The position numbers were made by a program, and so were the translations under genes. The notes under the pieces are model-generated. The model had not been told where the DNA came from. It worked only from the letters and a program-made list of their open reading frames with translations, and made no database searches. DNA of 64,000 bases from Candidatus Beckwithbacteria bacterium (GTDB lineage Bacteria > Patescibacteriota > Microgenomatia > UBA1400 > UBA1449), in the NCBI GenBank assembly GCA_012797845.1, contig JAAZOH010000004.1, forward strand, positions 1,658 to 65,657. Reading direction: 5' to 3'. Every line of letters starts with the position of its first letter. Within the stretch, counting starts at the first letter, position 1. Positions 23,666 to 38,883 of this stretch are shown one piece after another.

Positions 23666-24544
23666 TCAACTAGCGCTGAAACCAAGCTTAAACTTGGTAA
23701 ATCCCTTCCAACCAGAATTGAGTTTGGGAAAGCGCTCATCCCATAAACCTTCAAAGTCAAAGATTTTCATCTTGCGTTTTTTGCTTTCCAAAATTGCTTG
23801 CCAAATACATAAAGTTGGAGCAAAAAGTTGATGGCTTTTTAGAGTTGAAGCGTTGTGCCAATAGAAAGCCATATTAGGAGTAGTTAGGATAAGACAAGTG
23901 GCCAACAGGTTATTAGTAATAGATTCTTCGCTACGCTCAGAATGACACTTTTGAGAAATAAAGACAAAAAAACATTTCCCTCCAAAAGATCTGACTAAGT
24001 TTTCTAGCTCTGAAAATTTAGGTTTAAACAGCCAGTTGTGCGGTTTATTTTTTGACCACAGTTGATAGAAATTTTGCAATTGTTCTTTGCTTGTTTTATC
24101 TCCAGAAATAATTGAAACTACTAATTTTTGTTGAGCCTTGCGTAAGTTATAACGGGTTTTAGCTTTTAAGTTTGCCAATAAATAGTTTTCAGATTTAGTT
24201 ACGTCAAGCCATAGGGTTTTAGTAGGTAAAACTGGCCAAGAATTATTTTTATCTTTAGTAAAATAAATCTGATCTTTTTTTTGTTTAGCAATAATAAAAG
24301 GTTCTTGCTTAAAAATTACAACTCTATGTTTTCTTTTGATTTGCTTAACCATTTTGGGGTCGAGTGATTTTTTAGCGCGCAAAATTTTAACCAAACCAAA
24401 AGGAGTTAAGGGAATAGTGCGGTAAGAATAAAAAACTGTGTCTTTATCTTGTCTTAAAACACCTTGTTGCCAGCCAAGGGTTTGCATAAATTGGTTGAAC
24501 TGCGATGTTTGACGGACATCAATAAGATTAGTATTTGAAAACAT
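23666..24544 (-). CDS. FemAB-family peptidoglycan interpeptide-bridge aminoacyltransferase (paralog 2).
   Basis: The KAKTRYNLRKAQQK motif and overall FemABX/GNAT-tandem organisation. Confidence 0.7.
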   Translation of the reverse strand: MFSNTNLIDVRQTSQFNQFMQTLGWQQGVLRQDKDTVFYSYRTIPLTPFGLVKILRAKKSLDPKMVKQIKRKHRVVIFKQEPFIIAKQKKDQIYFTKDKNNSWPVLPTKTLWLDVTKSENYLLANLKAKTRYNLRKAQQKLVVSIISGDKTSKEQLQNFYQLWSKNKPHNWLFKPKFSELENLVRSFGGKCFFVFISQKCHSERSEESITNNLLATCLILTTPNMAFYWHNASTLKSHQLFAPTLCIWQAILESKKRKMKIFDFEGLWDERFPKLNSGWKGFTKFKLGFSAS

Positions 24545-25585
24545 TTACAATGGGAGGGCGGCTTTTAACTTAAGCAATTTCCAACGGGCTTTATCAGCTA
24601 TTTGATAAACCTGGTATTTAGGCTGATCAATCACATAATCAAATGTGCCCATAAATTCCATCAAAGTTGGGCCATAGCCTTGCTTGAATTTATGAAAACC
24701 CATCCAGGGATCTTTTGGATCAGGGTCAGGACCAAGGCTACCCCACATGTCAAAAATCTGGCAGCCAGCTTGCTTACCATAGCGTATAGCTTCCCACATC
24801 ATTAGATTGCTAGCCATCACTTCGCGGTCAGCAGAGCTAGAAGCGCCATATGGATAATACAAAATTTGATTAAAGGTAAATAAAATCCAAGTAACTAAAG
24901 TATTGCCTTGGTGAGTTGCTTTAAGAAGGTGAGCAATCCCAGCTGGTTTTAAGACTGACCACATTTGGCGGTGATACTTTTCGTTGTGAGCATAAAAGCG
25001 TTGCCGTTTGGTGGTTTCCTCAAAAGTTAATTTGAGATAATCTTCAAATGCCGATTCACTATTATCTTCGCTAATTTCCACCCCTTTGCGTTGAGCCAGT
25101 CCCACATTGTAGCGGGTTTTTTGCTTCATATTTGCCAGAAGTTCTTGCTCTGAAAGCCTAAGATTAGCCATGAAACTGTATTTAGTAAACATCGGCTTAC
25201 CAAAGACACAGCTATGCTCTTTAAGATATGTTTTGGCTTCAGCCAACTTTTCCTTATTATCAGTTTCAGCTATTTGATATACATTGGGTTCAAGTTTAAT
25301 AAAGATTGCATTTTTAGCTTTGCCCAGATCTTTCAAAGCAGCCAGAACTTCTTCACTAGGTAAAACTGATTTTGGCAAATAACCAATAGTAAAAGGAAAT
25401 TTAGGTACAGGATGAAAGGTGATAGTAAAACCATTGACAATTTTGCTGCCATTAAATTCACCAAGACGAACTACATCAATACCAGTTTTGGCACGAAACT
25501 CGCCCCATTCCCAAGACTGAAGCGGATGGGCCACCGCCTGGTTATAGCTATCTTTTTCTTCTGGTCGTACTTCTCGAACTAACAT
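24545..25585 (-). CDS. FemAB-family peptidoglycan interpeptide-bridge aminoacyltransferase (paralog 1).
   Basis: SWEWGEF, KQKTRYNVGLAQRKGV and a C-terminal GNAT-like half. It is directly adjacent to the second paralog. Confidence 0.75.
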   Translation of the reverse strand: MLVREVRPEEKDSYNQAVAHPLQSWEWGEFRAKTGIDVVRLGEFNGSKIVNGFTITFHPVPKFPFTIGYLPKSVLPSEEVLAALKDLGKAKNAIFIKLEPNVYQIAETDNKEKLAEAKTYLKEHSCVFGKPMFTKYSFMANLRLSEQELLANMKQKTRYNVGLAQRKGVEISEDNSESAFEDYLKLTFEETTKRQRFYAHNEKYHRQMWSVLKPAGIAHLLKATHQGNTLVTWILFTFNQILYYPYGASSSADREVMASNLMMWEAIRYGKQAGCQIFDMWGSLGPDPDPKDPWMGFHKFKQGYGPTLMEFMGTFDYVIDQPKYQVYQIADKARWKLLKLKAALPL

Positions 25586-25673
25586 AATGATAAAATGGAT
25601 TTATTGATGTTACCTTGATCTACCAGCTGTCGGATCGAAATGACAAGGTTAAGTATTTTTATTATAACGCACC

Positions 25674-26777
25674 ATGAACCCAACAGACTATAGCAATACA
25701 CTCTTTTGGCAACGGATCAAACGTTGGCTATTACGGCATATTTGGTTTACTAGGGTAGTAATTATCTTATCGTTTTTGGCGGTACTGACAGTTTTAATTA
25801 GCCTATTTAGTAAACCAGTTTCAAGCTTGTTGCAAAAAATTCTATATGGTCCGAAAGTAGTCACGACTTTTTTTACTGATCCGCTATACACATTGCCCTC
25901 ATATCAAAATCATACCAATATTTTAATTCTGGGCAAAGGTAATGCTAGCCATGAAGCGGCTGATTTGACAGACACTATTATTTTTTTGTCACTGGATTTA
26001 GTTAATAACGAAGTACTGATGCTCTCGATTCCCCGCGATATTTGGATCACCTCTTTAGCAGCCAAAATTAATACAGCCTACTATTATGGTGAACAAAAGG
26101 AAAAAGGCGGTGGTTTTCCTTTGGTTGAAGATGCCGTCTATGAAATTGTTGGTCAACCAATTCACTATGTAGCTATGGTTGATTTTGACGGTTTTGTCAA
26201 ACTGATTGATTTGCTGGGCGGAGTAGATGTAACCGTTGACCAGAGTTTTACTGATGAATTTTACCCTATCCCTGGCAAAGAAGATGATGAGTGTAATGGT
26301 GATCCGGAGTTTAGATGCCGTTATGAAGTTTTACACTTTGAAAAAGGTTTGCAACATATGGATGGGCAAACAGCGCTTAAATTTTCCCGCTCCCGGCATG
26401 CCGAAGGGGATGAAGGCACTGATTTTGCCAGATCAGCTAGACAACAAAAAGTCTTAAAAGCTATCAAAGAAAAACTCAGTTCTTCACAAGTCTATCTTAA
26501 TCCCAGCAAATTACTGGAACTTAAAAAGCTGGCTTCACAATATATTACGTTTAATAAAGATATTTCTGAAAAAATTTATGCTGGTCTGGCTGGTTTTGGT
26601 TATAATTTTTGGCGATCTGGTAAAGAAATTACCACAATCACACTAGATACTGGCGATGACGATAACCCAGGTTTTTTAGTTAATCCTCCTGTTGAAAAAT
26701 ATGATCAGTGGGTGTTGGAGCCCAGTGCCGGAACGTGGGATGAGTTTCAGGCTTATTTACGGCAGAAGATGAAATAA
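25674..26777 (+). CDS. LytR-CpsA-Psr (LCP) family cell-envelope phosphotransferase.
   Basis: N-terminal TM, then ILILGKG...DTIIFLSLD...LSIPRD and VDFDGFVKLIDLLGGVDV, the canonical LCP core motifs. Confidence 0.8.
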   Translation: MNPTDYSNTLFWQRIKRWLLRHIWFTRVVIILSFLAVLTVLISLFSKPVSSLLQKILYGPKVVTTFFTDPLYTLPSYQNHTNILILGKGNASHEAADLTDTIIFLSLDLVNNEVLMLSIPRDIWITSLAAKINTAYYYGEQKEKGGGFPLVEDAVYEIVGQPIHYVAMVDFDGFVKLIDLLGGVDVTVDQSFTDEFYPIPGKEDDECNGDPEFRCRYEVLHFEKGLQHMDGQTALKFSRSRHAEGDEGTDFARSARQQKVLKAIKEKLSSSQVYLNPSKLLELKKLASQYITFNKDISEKIYAGLAGFGYNFWRSGKEITTITLDTGDDDNPGFLVNPPVEKYDQWVLEPSAGTWDEFQAYLRQKMK

Positions 26778-28598: not shown

Positions 28599-30239
28599 TT
28601 ATTTAACTTTATAAATTTTTAAGCCTGGTTCTTCATAATCGATAATAAAATGTTCATCCAAAAATTGCTCGTTATTTTCAAACATACCCCGACTACTGCT
28701 ATCTAAAATGATCCAATCAATACTGTATTTTTTAATCAAATCTAAGGCCTGAGGTTCACCTTGATATATTTTCCTAACCTCTTCTAGTCTTGAATTATAA
28801 TCAATCCCCCAAGACCAAAGCCAACCCCGATAACCCATCATAATTTGTCGACCAGTTAAAACCGAAGCCCACTGTAAATGCCAATCACTGTTTAAGATAA
28901 TATCATTATGGCTAGATTTACGTCGAAGCATTTGCGCTAAATCGATTTCATGAGAAGTCAACATCGGTTGTTCATTAAATTGAAGTAGTCTAAATAGATC
29001 AAGAGTACCAGCTAAAATTAAAAAGATACATAATATAGTTGCAAGTAATTTGCCTGCTATTTTTTTCTGCCAGACAAAAGATAGCGCTTGGACTGCTAAA
29101 AAACACCAAAAAAGATACACCCAAATAAATAGTTTGGCATTATCCCAATCATAAGGCTGAAATAGCCAGATATTAGCCAATCCAAAAATCAGTAAAAAAG
29201 CCAGGTAAATGTTTCTTAGCTTAGTTTTTTTCCAAATTTGCCAAAAACCAATGGCAACCACTGGTAAAAAAACTCCCCAATTTTTAAACCAAAACAAAAA
29301 CCAAGCCCACAAAGTCCCATTATTATGAGCTAGCCAACCCAGTTGCAATCTCATAAAAGTGCCCAAGTCACGATCAAACCCCCAAAGAAAAAATGGTAAA
29401 GCAGTTAGAAATGCTCCTGCGCCAAAAAGTAACCACTTATACCAATACCGATAAGACATCAATAGTAGCCAAAAACATAGAAAGAAAAGAACAATAACTG
29501 TATGAACATGAACATAGGTGAGTAGTCCAGTGACTAAACCGGCCAAGAAAAGAGTCAGGTTTTTGACTTTAAAATCTTTAAGATACAGCCAGATAACAAA
29601 ACAGAAAACCCAAATGCCCAAACCCATGCCAGCTAACATGGCTCGCTGTGGAATTAAAAAACCTAAAAACACGTTATACATCCAATACCCTAAATCAGGA
29701 ATATGCGTGTTGGCGTAGCGGATATTTTCCGACAAACTAGGGTCTTTTAAAAATTCTATAAACCCTAAACTTCCGCCAGTGAAAAACACACAAATTGCTA
29801 AAAAAATTTGAGCTTCATGTTTAACAAGCATTTTACCTAAGGTATATAAACCTAGTAAAAGTGAGAAAGAAAAAGCTATGGATGGTAAGACCATAGCTTG
29901 AGGTAGGGTAAAACCAACCTTTAAAAGATTAGCAGAAAGGAGATTGGTAAAAAGAGGATAAGCTAATTTTTGGCCATAAAACAAAGGATTATTAGCAAGA
30001 ACTGCTCCCAATGGTCTGGAATACAGATTCATAACCTGGCTAATATGCATAGCCCAATCAGCCCAAACAATCCACCAACCGGTGGTTAAATTACCATCGC
30101 TATCAACGTAAAGCATCTTGGGCCAAAAGGTAAGAAAAAAGACTCCCCAAGTTGCTAATAGAATCAGCAGCCAGCGATTTTTTTTAAAATCAAATTTAAA
30201 ATCTATATATGATTGGTGAGGAAATGATTTTTTCAACGC
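28599..30239 (-). CDS. Large polytopic membrane protein, GT-C-fold glycosyltransferase-like.
   Basis: More than 10 TM helices in the N-terminal two thirds and a soluble C-terminal domain. The architecture resembles PMT/ArnT/oligosaccharyltransferase-like GT-C enzymes. Start set at the internal Met (MALKKSF), 3 nt after the GT39 stop. Confidence 0.45.
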   Translation of the reverse strand, partial: ALKKSFPHQSYIDFKFDFKKNRWLLILLATWGVFFLTFWPKMLYVDSDGNLTTGWWIVWADWAMHISQVMNLYSRPLGAVLANNPLFYGQKLAYPLFTNLLSANLLKVGFTLPQAMVLPSIAFSFSLLLGLYTLGKMLVKHEAQIFLAICVFFTGGSLGFIEFLKDPSLSENIRYANTHIPDLGYWMYNVFLGFLIPQRAMLAGMGLGIWVFCFVIWLYLKDFKVKNLTLFLAGLVTGLLTYVHVHTVIVLFFLCFWLLLMSYRYWYKWLLFGAGAFLTALPFFLWGFDRDLGTFMRLQLGWLAHNNGTLWAWFLFWFKNWGVFLPVVAIGFWQIWKKTKLRNIYLAFLLIFGLANIWLFQPYDWDNAKLFIWVYLFWCFLAVQALSFVWQKKIAGKLLATILCIFLILAGTLDLFRLLQFNEQPMLTSHEIDLAQMLRRKSSHNDIILNSDWHLQWASVLTGRQIMMGYRGWLWSWGIDYNSRLEEVRKIYQGEPQALDLIKKYSIDWIILDSSSRGMFENNEQFLDEHFIIDYEEPGLKIYKVK

Positions 30240-31498
30240 CATGTAGTTAGCCAGCGATGCTGTTCGACATTTGGTTTTGATAAAGGAATCCCAGTCCAAA
30301 AAGGATAGAAATACCAAAAAGTTATAAAAACTGAAATCAAGAAAAAATAAACAAACGCCTTGAGGACAGCATTATGATACCAAATAAACCACAGGGTAAA
30401 AGCCAAGATAATGCACATAATGGGTACGGCTGGTAAGTAATGATACAAAAACATAATTCGGGGTGAATCAATCCATTGTAGCCAAGCCGTAGGATATGCT
30501 AGAAGCAAAAACCATAAATTTTTGTGCCTAGTAATTATGGCTAAAAAGAAAGTAAAAAAGACAGCTACAAAACCACACCAGAAAATCAAAGGATGTCCAA
30601 AGGCATAAATATTAGCAATTGTATCTTGCTGATAATTTACCCAAAACCAAACCGGTTTAAGATCCAATGGCCAGGAAATAGCTGGCGACTGTGAAGGGTG
30701 AGTAGCAACCAAATGAGAATGATACCAATACATTTGCTGATGCAGTTCAATAATTTTGTCAAAACCATAGTGCCAAAACACAAAACTAAAACTAAACGCA
30801 TAAACTACAAAACCAGCTGCAATATATAAAATCATGTGTTTGTAAAGTTTTAGAATATTTATAAGTATTGCCTTTGGATCACGAGACCACTTAGTGTGTA
30901 ATATAAAAAAAACAAAGACATATGCTAATACAAATACCCCAGTCCATTTACAGGCTGAAGCGGCTCCCCAAAAGAGCGCTGAAACAAAAAACTTTTTTTT
31001 AAGCAAAAAATAAATACTGGTAGTAATAAAAAGTGTTAACAATGAATCAACGAGGGCAATGCGGGATAGGGTTAGAACCAAACCATCGCAAGCTACTAAA
31101 AAAGCCGCTACTAAGGGAATAAATTTATTTTTAGGAAAAAGCAACTCGCTCAATTTAAAAACAACAAAACTAAGAAGTACGCCAGCTATCATAGGTGCTA
31201 ATCTTCGGGAAAAAGAACTTTGACCTAAAAGTCTAATTGGTAAAGACACAATAATTCGGCCTAGGGGAGGGTGGTCCCAGTTGTAAGCAAAACCTTCTGG
31301 TGCTGGATAATCCCAAACCCAAGCTTTATTATTTCCAGCTGCATACTGTTCGGCGGTAAAGCCGGCATACACTTCATCAAAAACGTACTCATTTGGATAA
31401 TACAGTTGCCAGGATTTAGTAATTACGGCAAAAAGCAAGATTACCAGTAAAAGTAAAGTATAGTAGTTCTTGTTAAAAAATTTACGTAAACGAAACAT
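30233..31498 (-). CDS. GT39-family (protein O-mannosyltransferase / PMT-like) membrane glycosyltransferase.
   Basis: First extracytoplasmic loop carries the VFDEVY Asp-Glu motif diagnostic of the PMT/GT39 and ArnT GT-C clade. Multi-TM, 421 aa. Confidence 0.6.
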   Translation of the reverse strand: MFRLRKFFNKNYYTLLLLVILLFAVITKSWQLYYPNEYVFDEVYAGFTAEQYAAGNNKAWVWDYPAPEGFAYNWDHPPLGRIIVSLPIRLLGQSSFSRRLAPMIAGVLLSFVVFKLSELLFPKNKFIPLVAAFLVACDGLVLTLSRIALVDSLLTLFITTSIYFLLKKKFFVSALFWGAASACKWTGVFVLAYVFVFFILHTKWSRDPKAILINILKLYKHMILYIAAGFVVYAFSFSFVFWHYGFDKIIELHQQMYWYHSHLVATHPSQSPAISWPLDLKPVWFWVNYQQDTIANIYAFGHPLIFWCGFVAVFFTFFLAIITRHKNLWFLLLAYPTAWLQWIDSPRIMFLYHYLPAVPIMCIILAFTLWFIWYHNAVLKAFVYFFLISVFITFWYFYPFWTGIPLSKPNVEQHRWLTTWR

Positions 31499-31501
31499 AA
31501 C

Positions 31502-32362
31502 TTAAAGTAGTAAAAGTAGTAAGCCAATAGTAACACCAATCACTCCAGTCAATTTTTTGCGATTTAAATCGTCTTTGTAAAAATAGGCAGCACATAACGT
31601 TACCAGAGAAATTGAAGCTGCATTCATAGCATTAATGTATCCAGGGTTGGGTGCAAATTTATACCCTATTTGCATAAATAAATTAAACAACATAGCGCTA
31701 ACCCCAATTAAGATCAATATTTTCAGTTGGGAGCTGTTATACAAAAATTGTTTTTTTCTTATTTTCATTTCTATGATAGTAAATAACGAGACAAATAGAA
31801 AAATATAAAAAAGAAAAACTAATATTTCTATTCCCTGTCCAATAAAATATTTTGAAGCTAAAGCTAAGCCACCCCAAGCAAAAAAAGCACCGAAAGCATA
31901 TAGAACCCAAGTTTTTGAAGCTCTGACTTCTTTTTGTTTATTTTTATCAACCATAATCACGGCACTAAAAATAATAATGAGTAAAATCGCCATTATTTCT
32001 TTAGCTGACAAAGCTGAATCGAAAATTAAAACTGCAGTCAAGGTGGTAAAAATGACGTAACTTTTGGACAGAATTAAGCTATAGCCAGGATTTGGAGCCA
32101 AACGAATACTATTTAATGAAAACACATTTCCTAAGTAACTTAGAAAAAAACCAGCTAATGCAAAAACACCGATCCAATGCCAAGGAATAAATAACGAATT
32201 GGATTGAAATACATTCATCACTAGAAAAATGAAAGTTGGGATAGCAAACATAGCAAAATTATTAAAAACTGTTTCAGTTTTCAGTTGTTGACTTTTGCGC
32301 ACCAGAAGATATAAAGCAACAGAAGATATGAGCATAATAAAACCTGCCAAGATCCAGTTCAT
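31502..32362 (-). CDS. Polytopic membrane protein (possibly DMT/EamA-like).
   Basis: 286 aa with about 9-10 hydrophobic helices, between the GT39 gene and the Cys-rich surface protein gene. Confidence 0.4.
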   Translation of the reverse strand: MNWILAGFIMLISSVALYLLVRKSQQLKTETVFNNFAMFAIPTFIFLVMNVFQSNSLFIPWHWIGVFALAGFFLSYLGNVFSLNSIRLAPNPGYSLILSKSYVIFTTLTAVLIFDSALSAKEIMAILLIIIFSAVIMVDKNKQKEVRASKTWVLYAFGAFFAWGGLALASKYFIGQGIEILVFLFYIFLFVSLFTIIEMKIRKKQFLYNSSQLKILILIGVSAMLFNLFMQIGYKFAPNPGYINAMNAASISLVTLCAAYFYKDDLNRKKLTGVIGVTIGLLLLLL

Positions 32363-32405: not shown

Positions 32406-33647
32406 TTAGAGGAGAAGTCCGATTGCTACCAAGACCACCCCACCAAGTGTAAATAGGAAAGTGGGTGGTAAACCTCCAGCTTTGGGAAGCTCAGGGGCTT
32501 TAGGAGGTTGAGGTGTATCTGTTGGAGTAGCTGTAGGAGTTGGAGTAGAGCAAGTACAGTCAGACTCTTCGTTACATGATGGATTGACGCAACGTTTGGT
32601 ACCATTGATTTCTTCGCAAGTCATACTGCCACTGCATTCATCATCGTTATTACACTCACCCCAACAGTCAGGACAGCTACAATCAGTTTGCAGAGGGCAG
32701 TCATTATTGACACATCGATTAACCCCATTGATGCTTTTACATGTCAAACTATCTGGGCAATCTTCACTTGAATCACATTCTTCATAACATCCTGGACAGC
32801 TACAGCTTTCACTAGTTGGACATGATGAATTAATACATCTCATAACCCCATCAACACTTTGACAAGATAAACTATCAGGACATTCATCCTTATTATTACA
32901 CTCTTGATAACAAGTTGGGCAACTACAATCAGTTTGTAAGGGACAACTAGCATTAACACACATTTTTTGGACAATATTGTTGTAAGTTACATCTTTACAA
33001 ATTAGTCCACTAGTACAGTCCGCATCAGTCGAACAATTACCAGAATAACATGAATTTTGGCCAACACTAAAATTAATCTCGCACACATTAGCACTAGGTG
33101 TGCTTTCATCTTCACCTTCAAGTTGAAAGACTTCTGGGGTAGTAGCTTGTTGGCTAACAGTACTACTGGGAGTTTGAGTGTCGGAAACGATGTCTTGCTG
33201 ATTTGTTTTTAAATAAACCAACATTAAACCAGCAGTTACAATCAAGCCTGTAAAAAGTAGAATTGGTACAATTAAAAATACAGTTTTCAAAACCGAATGT
33301 TTAGGCTTTGTTGAGTTTTCAGGTTCCTGTTTTGGTTGTTCCAGTTTCTTTTTTTCAGGAGGTTCAGACTTAGAATCTGCTTTATTTTCATCAATAGTAT
33401 TTTCTAAAGGAGTTGGAGGAAGAGTGCTGCTTATTGTGTTTTGTTCTGTTGCTAAAGAAGTTGGTTGAATAAGTGCTTCATCTATGTCTATTTTTTCCGG
33501 ATTTACTTTTTCCTCCATGGAAGTAGGTTTAACTGTGTTATCAATAGTATCTATATGAACTGGATTACTATGCTTATGAGGTTTATTGAAATTGGGTGTT
33601 TTAACTAAGTGAGGTTTAGAAGTTGATGTATGATTATCAAAATCCAT
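32406..33647 (-). CDS. Cysteine-rich tandem-repeat surface protein with an N-terminal TM anchor and a C-terminal hydrophobic tail.
   Basis: Three and a half copies of a 41 aa unit (C-x-N-x-SCP-x4-CSCP-x-C-x2-EC-x4-(D/E)CPDSL-x-C-x-S-x-(D/N)G-x2-RC). A TPTPTATPTDTPQPP linker precedes ELPKAGG and a hydrophobic C-terminus. The DNA shows the matching 123 bp periodicity across 32560-33000. Confidence 0.6.
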   Translation of the reverse strand: MDFDNHTSTSKPHLVKTPNFNKPHKHSNPVHIDTIDNTVKPTSMEEKVNPEKIDIDEALIQPTSLATEQNTISSTLPPTPLENTIDENKADSKSEPPEKKKLEQPKQEPENSTKPKHSVLKTVFLIVPILLFTGLIVTAGLMLVYLKTNQQDIVSDTQTPSSTVSQQATTPEVFQLEGEDESTPSANVCEINFSVGQNSCYSGNCSTDADCTSGLICKDVTYNNIVQKMCVNASCPLQTDCSCPTCYQECNNKDECPDSLSCQSVDGVMRCINSSCPTSESCSCPGCYEECDSSEDCPDSLTCKSINGVNRCVNNDCPLQTDCSCPDCWGECNNDDECSGSMTCEEINGTKRCVNPSCNEESDCTCSTPTPTATPTDTPQPPKAPELPKAGGLPPTFLFTLGGVVLVAIGLLL

Positions 33648-33651
33648 AAAA

Positions 33652-35055
33652 TTAAGCCTTGTTTATAACCTTAGCATAGAATCCGGTGGTAAGTAAAACA
33701 AAACCAAGCAACAAAATCCCATAGGTTGGTAGTGAAAAACCAGAAGTGGGAGTTCCACTTTCAGTAGAGGGCATGCTACTGCGAGTAACTGAAGTAGCTG
33801 AAGGGGTAGCTTCAAAGGCTGGTAAATCATCGCCACCTACTCCAGCAGTAGCGATAACAAAGCTGCGGTTTAATGTCTGATTGTCACCATTACTATCAGT
33901 ATAATCAATGGTAAGTGTATGAGATCCCTCAGCTAGATTGGAGTTTGGACTATAGCTCCAGGTTCCTTCGCTATCTACTACTGCAGTAGCAGTTGTGGTA
34001 CCACTATCAATTTGAATTGTTAAAACTTTATTAGCAGGGCCTTCTCCAAAAAAATCAGGTTGAGTTGTGTTTAGTTCTTCGCCGTCATCAGCTGGATTAG
34101 TAATGCTTACAGGAATACTTTCAAGTGGATTTTGTTCTAATTCTTGGGCATAGGTTTCTGGCATTTCTCCGCTATCAGTAGCTTCTTCATCTGGCTCTAT
34201 TGGTAAAGCTTCTGGTTCTGTAGTTTCTTCATCTGTTGCAAGAATTTCATCAGTTGGAAAATCCTGAACTTCTTCATCAATAGTTGAAGGCATTGGCTCA
34301 GGTTCTGCTTGAGCTAAAGCTGTAAAGTCATAGGTTTGACCAAGAGTTATAGCTGGTACAGGAGAATCATTGGCAGTATTGGTAGTTACATTACTAGTTT
34401 TACCGTCACCTTGAACCATAATATCAATAATTGTTGTTTCCGGGTCATATTGAGCATACTCTGTGAGTTTAGTGGTGCGAGCATTTGCAAGACTAATGAG
34501 CCAACTACCATCCTTTTTAACTTGAGTTGAAAGAGGAGTTACGCCTGGAATAGTAACATACACAATAGAACCACTGGCAGGAGCACCACTTTCTAAACTA
34601 ACTGTTCCGTTGATCAAATCAGTTGGAGGTTGTGAACCTAGGGTGGGAGCGGTTTTTACAGAATATGCTTCACCATTATCATTAAAAGAGATTAGTTTTT
34701 CTCCTGATTTAATCTCAAAATTATACGTAGTGGCAGGTTGCAAACCGGTAATTGTAGCGTGATGAACTTTATAATCCTGAGCTTGGCCTGTTAGCTGATC
34801 ATTATCATCAAGTTGTACTTGGTCAAGTTTGCCTTTGCTGCCATAGGCAATTGATCCTTTAGTAGCAGCATCGGTCAGCCATGAGACGGTAAAGCGGTCA
34901 TGAGAAACATTGGTAATTTTGACTTTTTTAGGGGTAATAGTTGGATCTTTCTGAAATGTCAGAAGGCCTTTTTGATAAACAAAATAGCCACCAAAGAGTA
35001 AAGCAATCAAAACAACAGTAACTCCAAGATAAGTAAATAATTGCTTTGTATTCAT
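33652..35055 (-). CDS. Surface protein with a fibronectin-III-like domain, a bacterial Ig-like domain, and a C-terminal sorting-signal-like tail.
   Basis: Signal/TM anchor at the N-terminus. KVKITNVSHDRFTVSWLTD...TYNFEIKSG is FN3-like (purple acid phosphatase N-terminal type). An acidic linker is followed by a Big-like unit (EGSHTLTIDYTDSNGDN). The protein ends SLPTYG + a hydrophobic helix + KVINKA. Confidence 0.6.
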   Translation of the reverse strand: MNTKQLFTYLGVTVVLIALLFGGYFVYQKGLLTFQKDPTITPKKVKITNVSHDRFTVSWLTDAATKGSIAYGSKGKLDQVQLDDNDQLTGQAQDYKVHHATITGLQPATTYNFEIKSGEKLISFNDNGEAYSVKTAPTLGSQPPTDLINGTVSLESGAPASGSIVYVTIPGVTPLSTQVKKDGSWLISLANARTTKLTEYAQYDPETTIIDIMVQGDGKTSNVTTNTANDSPVPAITLGQTYDFTALAQAEPEPMPSTIDEEVQDFPTDEILATDEETTEPEALPIEPDEEATDSGEMPETYAQELEQNPLESIPVSITNPADDGEELNTTQPDFFGEGPANKVLTIQIDSGTTTATAVVDSEGTWSYSPNSNLAEGSHTLTIDYTDSNGDNQTLNRSFVIATAGVGGDDLPAFEATPSATSVTRSSMPSTESGTPTSGFSLPTYGILLLGFVLLTTGFYAKVINKA

Positions 35056-35072: not shown

Positions 35073-35420
35073 TTATTCTAATTCTCCGGAACCACTAGCT
35101 ATTAGCTCTTGTACCTGGGCAGGTAGAGAGACTCGATTATTAGCTGTATTAATACTAGCAGATTTGCTGATGCTAATGCTAGTATAAGGTTCGATTTTTG
35201 CTAGATCGATTCTAGGTACTACAAACCTACCTTGAACAAGATCAATAGCCTGTTGGTTAAATAAATTTTTGATAGGTTTAGCTGCTGCTTTAGCAGTTGT
35301 GGTTGCAAAATTGACATTTTTACTTTTACTCATATCAATAAAAAACCAGAGCAAACTAGTGATTAAAAGTAAAAAAGTAATAATAAACCAGTGGTTAATG
35401 CCTTGACGTTTATTTGCCAT
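35073..35420 (-). CDS. Small single-TM protein (possible PilP-like pilus assembly component).
   Basis: Start set at the MANKRQG Met. One TM helix then a roughly 80 aa soluble part. Positioned after pilN and pilO, as pilP is in type IV pilus operons. Confidence 0.35.
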   Translation of the reverse strand: MANKRQGINHWFIITFLLLITSLLWFFIDMSKSKNVNFATTTAKAAAKPIKNLFNQQAIDLVQGRFVVPRIDLAKIEPYTSISISKSASINTANNRVSLPAQVQELIASGSGELE

Positions 35421-35424
35421 ACAT

Positions 35425-36081
35425 TTATTCTTCCAGTTTGTTACCAAAATAAACAGTACATCTTAGATTTAAGCTCAGTTGAGATGACTGTTTACCTGTT
35501 TGTAAAACTGCAGTATCTATATGAGCAATACGAATATGCTGCTCCAAATCATTGATAAATTTTTTAATACCCTCATAAGAGCCCTGAGCATTGAGGTTGA
35601 TCGAAATAGCCTTCACCCCGTTTGGTAGCTGTTGTTTTTTACTCTCTGTTTTAGATGGGTCTTCATCTATTTCAGTTTGATCAAATAAGGGAAATTCTGA
35701 AAAAGAAAGCGAGGAAACGAGTAAATCATTCCTTTGGATAAAATAGCGAAGCTGTTGTTCAAAGAGTAAAAAATTATGATCATCCGGTAAAGCTTGATCT
35801 GCCAAAGAGATTGTCTGAGACATAGTTTCATAACTAGCGTTTAGGCTTTGAATAGTGTTAATTTTGGTCACTAATGATTTATTTAACGTATCAAATTCTT
35901 CTATTTTGTCTTGAAGTTGGGAAATAGTAATAATGGTAGGTTTGACTGCGAAAAGAAATAAAGCAATCACCAGGATTACTGATAAAACAAAATCCAGAGA
36001 AGCTTGGGCAAAAGGGTTATTGCGATACTTCTCGTACGTTTTGTTGTAATTACCGAACTGATCAAGATCAAGTGTTTTCAT
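35425..36081 (-). CDS. pilO: Type IV pilus assembly protein PilO-like.
   Basis: Short cytoplasmic N-terminus, a single TM, a coiled coil, then a C-terminal alpha/beta domain. The size and position after pilN fit PilO. Confidence 0.55.
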   Translation of the reverse strand: MKTLDLDQFGNYNKTYEKYRNNPFAQASLDFVLSVILVIALFLFAVKPTIITISQLQDKIEEFDTLNKSLVTKINTIQSLNASYETMSQTISLADQALPDDHNFLLFEQQLRYFIQRNDLLVSSLSFSEFPLFDQTEIDEDPSKTESKKQQLPNGVKAISINLNAQGSYEGIKKFINDLEQHIRIAHIDTAVLQTGKQSSQLSLNLRCTVYFGNKLEE

Positions 36082-36668
36082 AACTCGGTTTTAGCTAAAT
36101 CACAAGATAATTTTATAGAAAAACTGATTTCTGGATCAGACAATCCTCCTGAACTTAATTCATCAATAACTATTTCAGAAAACTGAGGCTGAATTTGTAA
36201 TGATGCCAACATATTTGAAAAAACAGTTTCATTTGGCACTGTTCCTTCAAAAGATAACTGTTGCTGATTTAAAGTAATAGTTTCTAAGACGGCTGTTTTT
36301 GGCAAATTATGTTCAAGTAGATTAATAGCTTCAGACAGTGACTGATCATCTTTTGTTAAAGTGTCAATGTTATCAAGGCGGTTTTGTAATTTTCTGATTT
36401 TGATTTCAGTATCACCGAGCTGCTGAATAATATCTGTGTTACTTTCAATATTTTCAGCTAATTGATCTACTTTGCGATCAAGACTAAAACGAACCAAAAG
36501 TGCGATGATAATAATGAGAAAAGTTCCAAATAAAATCAGCTTACCAATACGCAGAGCCCAATTAAAAGTTTGACCTACAGGACTTGCTTCAAAGGATTTA
36601 CTGGAAAGCAAATTGATAGCAATAGAAGACTGTTTTTTAGCCATTGTGGACAGGTTTACAATTAGCAA
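36078..36668 (-). CDS. pilN: Type IV pilus assembly protein PilN-like.
   Basis: Conserved N-terminal INLL motif (SIAINLLSSK), a single TM, and a coiled-coil periplasmic region. A 4 nt overlap with pilO suggests translational coupling. The start could instead be the internal Met at 36644. Confidence 0.55.
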   Translation of the reverse strand: MLIVNLSTMAKKQSSIAINLLSSKSFEASPVGQTFNWALRIGKLILFGTFLIIIIALLVRFSLDRKVDQLAENIESNTDIIQQLGDTEIKIRKLQNRLDNIDTLTKDDQSLSEAINLLEHNLPKTAVLETITLNQQQLSFEGTVPNETVFSNMLASLQIQPQFSEIVIDELSSGGLSDPEISFSIKLSCDLAKTEL

Positions 36669-37197: not shown

Positions 37198-38883
37198 ATG
37201 GTTGGAAAACTATTTAAAACTGGTGGTCGATTTTTTTCTTCAAAACAAAACTCGATTTTATCAGCAGCCTTTATTTTAATGATGGCTGTGATGATTTCCC
37301 GAGTTTTAGGGTTGGTGCGAAACCGCTTATTGGCCGGAACTTTTTTTGGAGGACAGGAATGGCAACTGGATGCGTACTATGCAGCTTTTACCTTGCCTGA
37401 CATGATTTTTCAGTTGATTGTACTGGGAGCGCTATCTTCAGCTTTTATTCCGGTTTATAGCTCTTACTTAAAAAAAAATGAAGATGAAGCCTGGCAGATT
37501 TCTTATGGAGTGATTACTTTGGCTATTATTGGCTTTAGTCTTTTATCAATTGTTATTTTTATCTTTGCTTACCCTTTAAGTAGTTTGATTGCTCCCAATT
37601 TTCCATCTGAAAGTTTGCTTGTCATGACCAAACTAACTAGGGTGATGTTGTTAGCGCAATTGTTTTTTTTAGTCTCAAATTTTTTTACAGGAATTTTACA
37701 ATCACATCAAAGGTTTTTATTGCCGGCAATAGCACCAATCTTATATAACTTAGGCATTATTAGTGGCATTGTCTTACTGGCTCCACAATTTGGGATTTAT
37801 GGTCCGGCTATTGGAGTAGTTGTCGGAGCTTTATTACATTTGTTAGTACAGCTGCCATTGGTTAAAAAAATTGGTTTTGCCTATAAGCCAAGGCTAGGAC
37901 TTAATCTTAAGGGTGTAAGAAAAATTGGCAAATTGATGATTCCTCGGACTTTAGCTTTAGCAGTAAGCCAAATCGAAGCTGTATTAGCCGTTTTTTTAGG
38001 TTCGGCAATGGTGGCTGGTTCTATTAGTATTTTTAATTTTGCCCAATCAATTTATGCGCTACCAATAGGTTTGTTTGGTTTAACTATTGGCCAAGCGGCT
38101 TTCCCCATGCTTTCTAAAGAAACCGATGATGAATCTAATCTTATGCAATTTAAAAACTTGTTTTTATCTTCGTTTAAACAAATTTTGTATTTGACCTTAC
38201 CCTCTAGCGCATTGTTACTGGTTTTACGGGTACCTTTGGTCAGAATTGTAGTTGGAGCCAAAACTTTTCCCTGGGAAGCTACGCTTTTAACCAGCCAAGC
38301 GGTGGCTATTTTAGCCTTATCTGTTGCGGCCCAAGCAGTGATCCAACTTTTAGTCAGATCATTTTATGCGTTGCAAGACACCAAAACGCCTTTGTTCATT
38401 GGCATGGTTTCAGTTTTAACTAATGTAGTTTTGAGCTTTTATTTTGTTAACTCTTTAAAATTTGGAGTTATTGGTTTGGCTTTGTCATTTACTCTTGCAG
38501 GGATTTTTCAAGCCATTTTATTATTTAGCTTTTTAAATAAAAAAATACACTATTTACCTATAAGCGAATGGGGTTTGCCCATCTTTAAAATGCTCATTGC
38601 TACGGTTTTAACTGGTGTATCTTTATGGTTACCGATGCGATTACTAGACCGCTTTATTTTGGATACGACTAGAACTATCAATTTATTGGTTTTGACTGTA
38701 GTAGCTGGGGCGTGTGGATTTATCGTCTATCTTGTTTTTTCTAAAATTTTACAAATTAAAGAGCTGGATCAGTTTTTGAAGATTTTTGAAAAATTTGGAG
38801 CGTGGCGCAAAGTCTTTGATGAAAGTGAGGAAGTTTTAGCCGAGCCTTCAGCTATCTCCCAATCTGCTCCACTTCAAGAGTAA
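37198..38883 (+). CDS. murJ: Lipid II flippase MurJ (MviN).
   Basis: 14-TM MOP-superfamily protein with the N-terminal SAAFILMMAVMISRVLGLVRNRLLA region characteristic of MurJ. Confidence 0.85.
   Translation: MVGKLFKTGGRFFSSKQNSILSAAFILMMAVMISRVLGLVRNRLLAGTFFGGQEWQLDAYYAAFTLPDMIFQLIVLGALSSAFIPVYSSYLKKNEDEAWQISYGVITLAIIGFSLLSIVIFIFAYPLSSLIAPNFPSESLLVMTKLTRVMLLAQLFFLVSNFFTGILQSHQRFLLPAIAPILYNLGIISGIVLLAPQFGIYGPAIGVVVGALLHLLVQLPLVKKIGFAYKPRLGLNLKGVRKIGKLMIPRTLALAVSQIEAVLAVFLGSAMVAGSISIFNFAQSIYALPIGLFGLTIGQAAFPMLSKETDDESNLMQFKNLFLSSFKQILYLTLPSSALLLVLRVPLVRIVVGAKTFPWEATLLTSQAVAILALSVAAQAVIQLLVRSFYALQDTKTPLFIGMVSVLTNVVLSFYFVNSLKFGVIGLALSFTLAGIFQAILLFSFLNKKIHYLPISEWGLPIFKMLIATVLTGVSLWLPMRLLDRFILDTTRTINLLVLTVVAGACGFIVYLVFSKILQIKELDQFLKIFEKFGAWRKVFDESEEVLAEPSAISQSAPLQE

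Follow-up and report, generated by a model that had tools for sequence, protein, structure and literature searches.

Introduction

Bacteria of the candidate phyla radiation (CPR, or Patescibacteria) are ultra-small and mostly uncultivated, and to our knowledge little is known, beyond type IV pili, of the surface molecules with which they contact their hosts. One report describes all cultivated CPR bacteria as obligate episymbionts (PMC11623550). CPR Peregrinibacteria encode large Cys-rich extracellular proteins with an average length of ∼1,650 amino acids (aa) (PMC4736985), and sortases have been reported from Microgenomates genomes as well as from those of Peregrinibacteria (for the latter, PMC4736985). 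The sequence LPxAG has been accepted as a sortase A motif in two Staphylococcus aureus proteins (PMC3436756). Small Cys-braced modules are also known, among them those of CREMP, which have the spacing Cx4Cx5Cx8C with disulfides C1-C3 and C2-C4 over a small hairpin and have been equated with the DPY modules of Dumpy and with the EGF domain minus its last third (PMC12723725). Here, we compare with these systems a gene from a 64,000-nucleotide (nt) stretch (referred to as the window) of an 85-kb contig from a metagenome-assembled genome (MAG) of a Candidatus Beckwithbacteria bacterium. The gene, open reading frame (ORF) 32406-33647 on the minus strand, is identical to the NCBI hypothetical protein GYA49_00680.

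The ORF encodes 413 aa, 33 of which are Cys, and ends with a TAA stop at 32406-32408 (coordinates checked by translation). Orthologs P0002 to P0004, with 54 to 32% identity to the window protein, keep the MDFDN N terminus, all module Cys, and the tail. Judged by its relatives, the ORF is a real, conserved coding gene, since orthologs and homologs retain these three features, and this conservation rules out a noncoding ORF. We found that the protein carries four copies of a 39-aa module with eight Cys, which as a whole belongs to no known family and whose core is a variant of a known mini-fold. With moderate confidence, we read the protein as a sortase-processed, probably O-glycosylated, disulfide-stabilized surface spacer or adhesin of a CPR bacterium.

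Four 39-residue modules from old duplications

An earlier note on this DNA, made from the sequence alone, had proposed a Cys-rich tandem repeat of 41 aa. This protein period is far above chance. At an offset of 41, aa 186 to 370 (17.8% Cys) have 53 identities, while the best offsets of shuffled sequences gave a mean of 21.1 (standard deviation, 1.9) and a maximum of 29. When Cys is left out, the identities at this offset number 30, compared with 7.9 ± 2.7 expected.

The register and copy number had to be revised. The note had read the unit from fifth Cys to fifth Cys and counted 3.5 copies; HMMER finds four module stretches in the window protein and AlphaFold2 four hairpins. Eleven homologs have the same Cys pattern, and in them long Thr/Pro linkers often part the copies between "...DCxC" and "C[WY]xxC..."; we therefore placed the boundaries of the eight-Cys unit there. 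The resulting 39-aa unit has the spacing C[WY]x2Cx5Cx5Cx8CVNx2Cx5CxC and, in alignment A1, the consensus C[WY]-x2-C-x5-C-x3-L-x-C-x4-G-x2-R-C-V-N-x2-C-x2-E-x-D-C-x-C. Two-residue spacers join the canonical copies, which accounts for the period (39 + 2 = 41 aa). The array (aa 200 to 366, minus strand like all features of the gene) starts with the divergent eight-Cys module 0 (aa 200 to 243; 32919-33050), in which CYx3C replaces C[WY]x2C and which has a 12-residue hairpin loop and insertions. It continues with three canonical copies: module 1 (aa 246 to 284; 32796-32912), module 2 (aa 287 to 325; 32673-32789), and module 3 (aa 328 to 366; 32550-32666), the last of which fits the family profile best.

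The note had also taken the units for recent duplications on the basis of a 123-bp period in the DNA. A faint signal of that period exists (48% DNA identity at an offset of 123, against a background of ∼25%), but Tandem Repeats Finder reported no 123-bp array, and a direct-repeat search returned only a 24-nt remnant. Pairwise, the canonical copies have 55 to 62% nucleotide identity and 46 to 54% amino acid identity, and identical residues use the same codon in only about half to 62% of cases. Given this divergence, the limited codon sharing, and the lack of a Tandem Repeats Finder array, the copies are old duplications kept by selection on the protein. A recent DNA tandem repeat, with at least 70% identity head to tail, was rejected on the same identities and the missing array. 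One might still suspect a recently expanded, fast-evolving repeat of the contingency type, as the window protein has four modules against no more than three in 120 other members and as two neighboring modules of the P0002 ortholog are much more similar to each other. The nucleotide divergence and codon usage of the copies refute this explanation for the present locus, and we give it next to no probability.

A family found mostly in CPR bacteria

Against 1.84 billion representative proteins, the module profile matched ∼170 clusters at an E value of ≤1e-3 and 59 at ≤1e-10, with the window protein ranking first. Among the 121 members confirmed by regular expression, a single module is present in 73, two in 40, and three in 7; the window protein alone has four, which makes it the largest member detected by module number. 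The few named members are all called "hypothetical protein" and come mostly from Patescibacteria (Beckwithbacteria or "Patescibacteria group"), with one labeled Marinimicrobia (P0013). In no member do the precomputed Pfam domains cover the module. When the whole window protein was compared with Pfam and NCBIfam at an E value of ≤1, only noise was returned (GET2, PASTA kinase, and MapZ), and this came from the low-complexity N terminus. The family thus appears to be new, unannotated, and largely confined to CPR bacteria. The note's statement that the module matches no recognized family stands for the eight-Cys unit, with neither Pfam nor NCBIfam matches and only hypothetical relatives; it does not extend to the hairpin core, a mini-motif of the CREMP/DPY/EGF type.

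A profile search of genome contigs with module alignment A2 returned three loci, none of them from the window's own genome. One contig in the wider set (L011; CAYXFC010000042.1) is titled "uncultured Pseudomonadales bacterium," whereas its genes for a 372-aa protein, the Cys-rich protein, and a protein O-mannosyltransferase (PMT)-like enzyme closely match those of the CPR-type loci L004 and L005. Because of this match, the Pseudomonadales label is doubtful, and the L011 and P0013 contigs are likely misbinned or mislabeled.

A predicted hairpin core resembling CREMP and EGF modules

As the note had recommended, we modeled one unit. With a single-module alignment, AlphaFold2 predicted a beta-hairpin (residues 15 to 20 and 23 to 28) with a mean predicted local distance difference test (pLDDT) value of 76.6. 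For aa 170 to 413, it predicted four hairpins with pLDDT values of ∼75 to 87 (for module 0, strands E46-53 and E56-63 at ∼83 to 87), junctions below 50, disordered Thr/Pro linkers, and a C-terminal helix (model residues 226 to 243). At the level of the model, the array shows a beads-on-a-string architecture of independently folding modules, and homologs that carry the module one to three times with Thr/Pro linkers in between likewise indicate that the modules are independent.

The predicted hairpin lies within Cys2 to Cys5, whose spacing Cx5Cx5Cx8C ("...DCPxxLxCxxVxGxxRCV") nearly matches the Cx4Cx5Cx8C of CREMP, Dumpy DPY, and the N-terminal two-thirds of EGF. The note had ruled out EGF by spacing, a statement that is correct only in part. 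An EGF domain proper has six Cys, a C4-x-C5 arrangement, and a C5-C6 loop, and was rejected, as the module has eight Cys and continues after the hairpin as C-VNxx-C-x5-C-x-C. The Pfam models EGF, DPY, and FOLN gave no match at an E value of ≤1.

With Foldseek, the single-module model had no match in the PDB below an E value of 1, and the top entries were knottin toxins, Dkk1 CRD2, and EGF modules. More was learned from the sequences. Against those of the PDB, the module profile matched 9pgb, a four-module avian CREMP (E = 8e-12), a value summed over four weak stretches at profile positions 7 to 32; per module, the scores were 13.8 to 16.6 bits (i-Evalue, 0.08 to 0.6). The phmmer comparison with 9pgb gave an E value of 4e-4 with high bias, hhalign against a CREMP fragment gave a probability of 52%, and the KASH2 starfish disulfide-directed hairpin matched the module profile at an E value of 0.05. 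As the per-module matches are weak and the hhalign probability is only 52%, common ancestry with CREMP is unproven, and convergence is plausible.

Some proteins match the profile in the core only, namely, CREMP, bacterial proteins with "GDCDxDxECQSGLTCVQVxGTDxC" repeats, and a eukaryote-like 947-aa protein. These core-only matches suggest that the hairpin core is widespread and possibly convergent. By the same comparison, C1, C6, C7, and C8 are the Cys specific to the present family. Several of the bacterial proteins (P0048, P0054, P0058, P0067, and others), some with Glug motifs, end in tandem copies of "GHLDYCRDCGPCxxGxGDCDxDxECQSGLTCVQVxGTDxCQ" and have only the hairpin core in common with our module. 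Their sole Pfam annotation is Dumpy_DPY in P0048 (whole-protein E = 1.2e-10, with no single stretch passing).

In place of disulfides, the eight Cys could ligate Zn, Cu, or Fe-S as in metallothioneins or ferredoxins, which would fit an anaerobe without obvious Dsb. The high Cys content and the CxC and CxxC-like junctions ("CSCPxC"), which resemble metal sites, are compatible with this idea, and Pfam scans detected neither a Dsb nor a VKOR gene in the window. Yet the "CxCPxC" cluster arises here only from abutting modules and is split by Thr/Pro linkers in homologs, and the spacing together with the conserved Gly, Asn, and Leu matches disulfide-braced hairpins with solved structures. The array also has a predicted extracytoplasmic location, after a signal anchor and before a putative sorting signal, and both extracellular Cys-rich proteins and a disulfide-forming protein have been described in CPR genomes (PMC4736985). 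A metal-binding module is therefore most improbable, and we retain the disulfide-stabilized surface protein as our reading.

N-terminal anchor and lone cysteine

The charged N-terminal region and single transmembrane (TM) helix described in the note were borne out. The first 118 residues (33294-33647) are rich in Lys, Pro, Thr, and Glu, have a net charge of −5, and are presumably cytoplasmic and disordered. They are followed by a TM helix (VLKTVFLIVPILLFTGLIVTAGLMLVYL; aa 119 to 146; 33210-33293), for which Kyte-Doolittle values in 19-aa windows exceed 1.8 at starts from aa 117 to 129 and reach 1.79 at aa 130. This helix qualifies as an export signal; since 118 residues precede it, it is better classed as a signal anchor than as a cleavable signal peptide of the classical kind. 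Most members conserve the helix, which is of the NWxLxLIGLATxxLxxIAVxTAxKLY type. The picture of a membrane-anchored, extracytoplasmic, Cys-dense protein is thus supported. A type IV pilin or pseudopilin, tried because of PilN/PilO neighbors, was rejected: the N terminus (MDFDNHTS...) has no visible G-F/M-x-x-x-E motif of a class III signal peptide, and the TM helix lies only at aa 119 to 146.

Between the helix and the array are a Ser/Thr/Gln-rich linker (aa 147 to 188; 33084-33209) and a strand motif, CEINFSV (aa 189 to 195; 33063-33083), that holds the 33rd, unpaired Cys at aa 189. AlphaFold2 assigned this strand a low pLDDT. The lone Cys recurs in the family. Exactly one Cys precedes the first module in 54 of the 121 members, with Phe at +4 in 44 and Leu at +2 in 34 of these 54 (consensus, C-[EQ]-L-x-F-x-[VIL]). 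The total Cys number is 8n + 1 in 55 of 121 members, and the lone Cys is usually isolated between Pro/Thr linkers.

The 118-aa extension is specific to Beckwithbacteria. The linker includes the motif PEVFQL, which is common to P0003, P0004, and the 372-aa Cys-containing protein of L005, and an M[DN]FD start is found in P0003, P0004, and the separate 372-aa protein of L005 and L011. The gene for the latter (L005:3118-4236; L011:288-1406) sits between those for an fn3-domain protein and the Cys-rich protein. In BLASTP, the window protein and the L005 372-aa protein are weakly similar over the TM helix and PEVFxL (E = 0.005), within a common frame "M[DN]FD...TM...PEVFxL." A gene fusion or an N-terminal exchange in Beckwithbacteria is possible.

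A probable sorting signal variant and sortase genes next to homologs

The C terminus of the window protein is as the note had described it: a Thr/Pro linker (STPTPTATPTDTPQPPKAPE; aa 367 to 386; 32490-32549), the pentapeptide LPKAG (aa 387 to 391; 32475-32489), and a hydrophobic end of 22 residues (GLPPTFLFTLGGVVLVAIGLLL; aa 392 to 413; 32409-32474) without a basic tail. LPKAG is a T-to-A variant of the LPXTG-type sortase motif and lies 22 residues before the end, within the 20 to 35 residues from the C terminus that are typical of such pentapeptides. The segment behind it has hydropathy values of 1.6 to 2.3, is predicted to be helical, and can span the membrane; it carries PT at +4/+5 and GG at +11/+12 after the motif Gly.

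This tail is a family trait. In 101 of the 121 members, an xPxxG motif followed by a hydrophobic run (median, 24 residues) occurs within the last 45 or fewer residues. The Pro and Gly were fixed by the search pattern. At the free positions of these 101 tails, Leu occupies position 1 in 78 and Ala position 4 in 75, while position 3 is Glu in 33, Lys in 21, and Gln in 13. After the motif Gly, there is Pro at +4 in 71, Thr at +5 in 70, and Gly at +12 in 81. Most members thus end with L-P-[EKQ]-A-G-x3-P-T-x5-G-G and a hydrophobic tail from which basic residues are usually absent. By its sequence, the tail is an LPXTG-type signal in which Ala replaces Thr, with extra conserved helix positions and usually without a basic tail. 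Substrates of exosortase, archaeosortase, or rhombosortase (PEP-CTERM, PGF-CTERM, or GlyGly-CTERM) were rejected for want of such a motif, a basic cluster, or an NCBIfam CTERM match, and none of the window proteins scanned had an exosortase-like Pfam match.

The note's comparison with sortase signals was strengthened by gene adjacency. Three homologs with the same module and the tail variants TPKAG, VPKSG, and TPQAG, namely, P0009 (L003, a 788-kb CPR contig), P0008 (L009/L010), and P0011 (L020), are each followed by a sortase (PF04203) gene that starts 2 to 33 bp beyond the stop codon. In Woesebacteria (L014:5297-6004; also L015 and L016), a 235-aa protein with a shorter-hairpin eight-Cys variant (CGGTCGSNYNCQGGYFCFNGFCRNPICAGDSDCNC) is encoded directly upstream of a sortase gene and ends with "VLPKTGGGLPFLAF...LLKKIR," i.e., a canonical signal of LPKTG, TM helix, and KKIR. 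On these features, the protein bridges the Cys-rich family and classical sortase substrates. At L017, a Cys-rich protein ending with "IIPKAG..." is encoded upstream of a Microgenomates sortase. The L003 sortase has 3,692 relatives, the named ones being from Microgenomates or Patescibacteria (CPR); no GYA49-tagged protein is present among the 120 matches listed.

Two observations at these loci stand apart. Just downstream of the CPR sortases, L009:4120-4563 and L017:7116-7562 encode proteins of 147 to 148 aa with an N-terminal TM helix that end with "LPATGITE*" or "LPGTGIVD*," an unusual arrangement (seen at two loci) in which LPXTG lies three residues from the C terminus and no hydrophobic segment follows. 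On the L003 contig, region 1-2035, ∼8 kb from the Cys-rich/sortase pair, encodes Big_13, cohesin-domain, and dockerin-like proteins, which suggests further surface-assembly modules.

Dedicated substrate-sortase gene pairs raise the question of whether the adjacent enzyme polymerizes its substrate, joining subunits head to tail or to an fn3/Big_13 partner, in place of peptidoglycan, into a beaded filament or pilus. The partner carries a related signal, and intermolecular links could form through the unpaired Cys and strand motif that are conserved near the N terminus. The adjacent sortase passes the general model TIGR01076 and has class C as its best NCBIfam match, far below the cutoff (53.6 versus 160 bits), and it likewise fails every other class-specific cutoff from A to F. 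On reading the sequences, we noticed neither a pilin-type Lys motif (YPKN) nor Ig-like pilin domains (no systematic search was made), most members are tiny with one or two modules, and we know of no such sortase polymer in CPR bacteria. We consider a polymerized fiber very unlikely.

Several points weigh against sortase processing as we propose it. The window ORF ends with ...GLLL without Lys or Arg, and only 14 of the 101 tails have any Lys or Arg in their last six residues, although a basic tail defines classical LPXTG signals. The curated NCBIfam LPXTG-anchor models gave only a subthreshold match (EF0750_LPXTG, 14 bits against a cutoff of 47; E = 0.056). In the 64-kb window, a TLxTC regular expression, tblastn with two CPR sortases, and Pfam scans revealed no sortase gene, nor did ∼12 kb of extra flank contain one, these being the parts of the MAG that the search covered. 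The tails of the sortase-adjacent homologs ([TV]P[KQ][AS]G, with an Arg inside the helix) are also somewhat unlike the Beckwithbacteria type. The conserved N-terminal TM helix suggests that it stays in the membrane, which leaves the mature topology uncertain. Pfam scans of the remaining unannotated window ORFs detected no Dsb, VKOR, exosortase, or signal peptidase. What we propose about disulfides, glycosylation, cleavage, and function is inference, not observation.

The missing basic tail and the lack of a sortase in the window and flanks would suit a double-anchored membrane protein, in which LPKAG and the hydrophobic segment stay uncleaved as a second TM helix and the Cys-rich part, a loop fixed at its two ends, belongs to a membrane-proximal complex with PilN/PilO-like and small TM proteins. 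Sequence conservation in the N-terminal TM helix and in the C-terminal helix (the PT and GG positions) is what helix-helix contacts in a membrane complex would predict, and the synteny with bitopic PilN/PilO-like proteins is conserved. Nevertheless, conservation in the tail is highest in the extracytoplasmic L-P-x-A-G, exactly where a sortase cuts; translational adjacency to a sortase gene is seen for three homologs; and relatives have the canonical LPKTG with KKIR. We regard the double anchor as rather unlikely and continue to favor a sortase-processed protein.

Genomic neighborhood

The window (GC content, ∼31 to 41%) has a gene content typical of CPR, and the genes around the Cys-rich gene are all on the minus strand. 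Upstream are conserved genes for a PilN-like protein (36078-36668), a PilO-like protein (35425-36081), and a small TM protein (35073-35447), followed by a gene for a 467-aa fn3/Pur_ac_phosph_N (purple-acid-phosphatase-N)/Big_13 protein (33652-35055) that ends 4 bp upstream of the Cys-rich gene. Downstream are an EamA transporter gene (31502-32362) and a PMT/GT39-type (GT-C) protein O-mannosyltransferase-like gene (30233-31498), the latter a conserved neighbor of Cys-rich genes, and then a gene for a 572-aa membrane protein (28599-30317; TTG start). The mechanically called ORFs of the last two genes overlap by 85 nt (30233-30317), and the 572-aa gene probably begins further downstream than called.

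The order PilN-PilO-small TM-fn3/Big_13-Cys-rich-PMT is shared by another Beckwithbacteria MAG (L001/L012) and by the loci L004/L005/L011 and L008 (orthology by tblastn). At L019, only the GT-C gene is seen near the Cys-rich gene, on a contig too short to reach the upstream genes. L005:162-1724 and L008:689-2141 contain the PilN-like, PilO-like, and small TM genes as in the window at 35073-36668. The two loci that show the gene upstream of the PilN-like gene, the window and L008, have no adjacent PilM; the upstream gene encodes ribosomal protein S20 in the window and a PD-(D/E)XK nuclease in L008. The PilN/PilO-like genes may lie outside a canonical type IV pilus operon.

The fn3/Big_13 protein has an N-terminal TM helix and ends with "MPSTESG-TPTSG-FS-LPT-YG," a TM helix, and KVINKA, a C terminus conserved in the L001, L005, and L008 orthologs. 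Such partners end with [TV]P[TE]SG-x2-[LT]PT, a TM helix, and a basic tail, a signal related to that of the Cys-rich family. The PMT neighbor and the Thr/Pro linkers suggest O-glycosylation of the Cys-rich protein, with the linker at aa 367 to 386 as a candidate stalk.

Two FemAB-family genes, an LCP (LytR-CpsA-Psr) ligase gene, and a MurJ gene flank the cluster (window 23666-26777 and 37198-38883), and the L001 ortholog has the same FemAB/LCP set nearby. An interpeptide bridge built by FemAB proteins would be the usual sortase acceptor. By these gene assignments (two FemAB, LCP ligase, and MurJ), the neighborhood is one of envelope biogenesis.

Discussion

If the window protein is processed by a sortase, its path to the surface can be sketched. 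The helix at aa 119 to 146 would drive Sec-dependent export of the C-terminal 267 residues, after which the four modules would fold oxidatively as beads, each with a beta-hairpin core. By analogy with CREMP and EGF, disulfides C2-C4 and C3-C5 would brace the hairpin; C1 and C6 to C8 probably provide two more that clamp the module ends, for a total of four per module. The Ser/Thr/Pro linkers would form a stalk, probably O-glycosylated by the neighboring PMT-type GT-C enzyme, to which conserved synteny points. The hydrophobic segment would hold the protein at the membrane until a CPR sortase cleaves between A and G of the LPKAG motif and links the protein to a peptidoglycan cross-bridge or a partner protein. 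The conserved cluster suggests, as its partners, the fn3/Big_13 protein encoded beside it, whose tail is related, and the PilN/PilO-like bitopic membrane proteins. On the outside of the cell, it would likely serve as a spacer or adhesin layer that is rigid and resists proteases.

In a more elaborate proposal, the PilN-like/PilO-like/small TM/fn3-Big_13/Cys-rich/PMT cluster would build a glycosylated surface structure that is specific to CPR bacteria and has not been described before, for example, an attachment fibril or an envelope tether. A dedicated clade of Microgenomates sortases would read the basic-tail-less signal LPxAG-x3-PT-x5-GG of the two exported subunits, the lone-Cys strand (C-E-L-x-F-x-V) would form intermolecular bonds, and the N-terminal anchor and 118-aa cytoplasmic extension of Beckwithbacteria would make a tether from cytoplasm through membrane to wall. 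As a whole, this is speculative and quite unlikely.

Whatever its exact role, the family offers a compact and easily recognized CPR surface component, a 39-aa eight-Cys module with an LPxAG-type tail, whose genomic surroundings are informative in two ways, through a dedicated sortase and through a PilN/PilO-fn3-PMT cluster. The variant signal without a basic tail is one likely reason why curated LPXTG models gave no match above the cutoff, and sortase substrates of this type may be undercounted in CPR genomes. The use of an EGF/CREMP-like two-disulfide hairpin as a tandem building block in bacteria implies either convergence or very deep ancestry.

Among known systems, the LPXTG substrates of monoderm bacteria have the same overall plan: an N-terminal export signal, extracytoplasmic repeats, a Pro/Thr-rich wall-spanning linker, and L-P-x-[T/A]-G ∼25 residues from the C terminus followed by a hydrophobic helix, with homologs of our protein adjoining PF04203 sortase genes. 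The window protein differs from them in lacking a basic tail and in having a long cytoplasmic N-terminal extension and a conserved, probably uncleaved signal anchor, and its family has P-T at +4/+5 and G-G at +11/+12 in the helix. The Peregrinibacteria proteins resemble ours in coming from a CPR lineage, in being exported and very Cys rich with a proposed attachment role, and in the presence of sortase in the genomes (PMC4736985). They are far longer (∼1,650 aa), are weakly similar to Myxococcus Cys-rich repeats, and belong to a different phylum, and we found no sequence relation between them and the 39-aa module.

At the level of the fold, knottin/inhibitor cystine knot toxins of spiders and scorpions, KASH2, and the colipase fold of Dickkopf CRD2 gave Foldseek template modeling scores of 0.55 to 0.66 over 25 to 28 residues, all with E values above 1. 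These are free secreted effectors with two to four disulfides, whereas the window protein is bacterial and anchored, with modules in tandem. EGF domains have a C4-x-C5 arrangement and a third loop that the CPR module lacks. CREMP and the CPR protein have in common tandem small beta-hairpin modules, a Cx4-5Cx5Cx8C spacing, flexible junctions in a beads-on-a-string arrangement, the signature "C-P-x-G/S-L/T-x-C-x-x-V-D/N-G-x-x-R-C-V," and the hairpin, which AlphaFold2 predicts for the CPR protein. The CPR module differs from that of CREMP by four extra Cys, in the N-terminal C[WY]xxC and the C-terminal NxxCx5CxC. The module is thus a new eight-Cys elaboration of a known two-disulfide hairpin and not a new kind of system.

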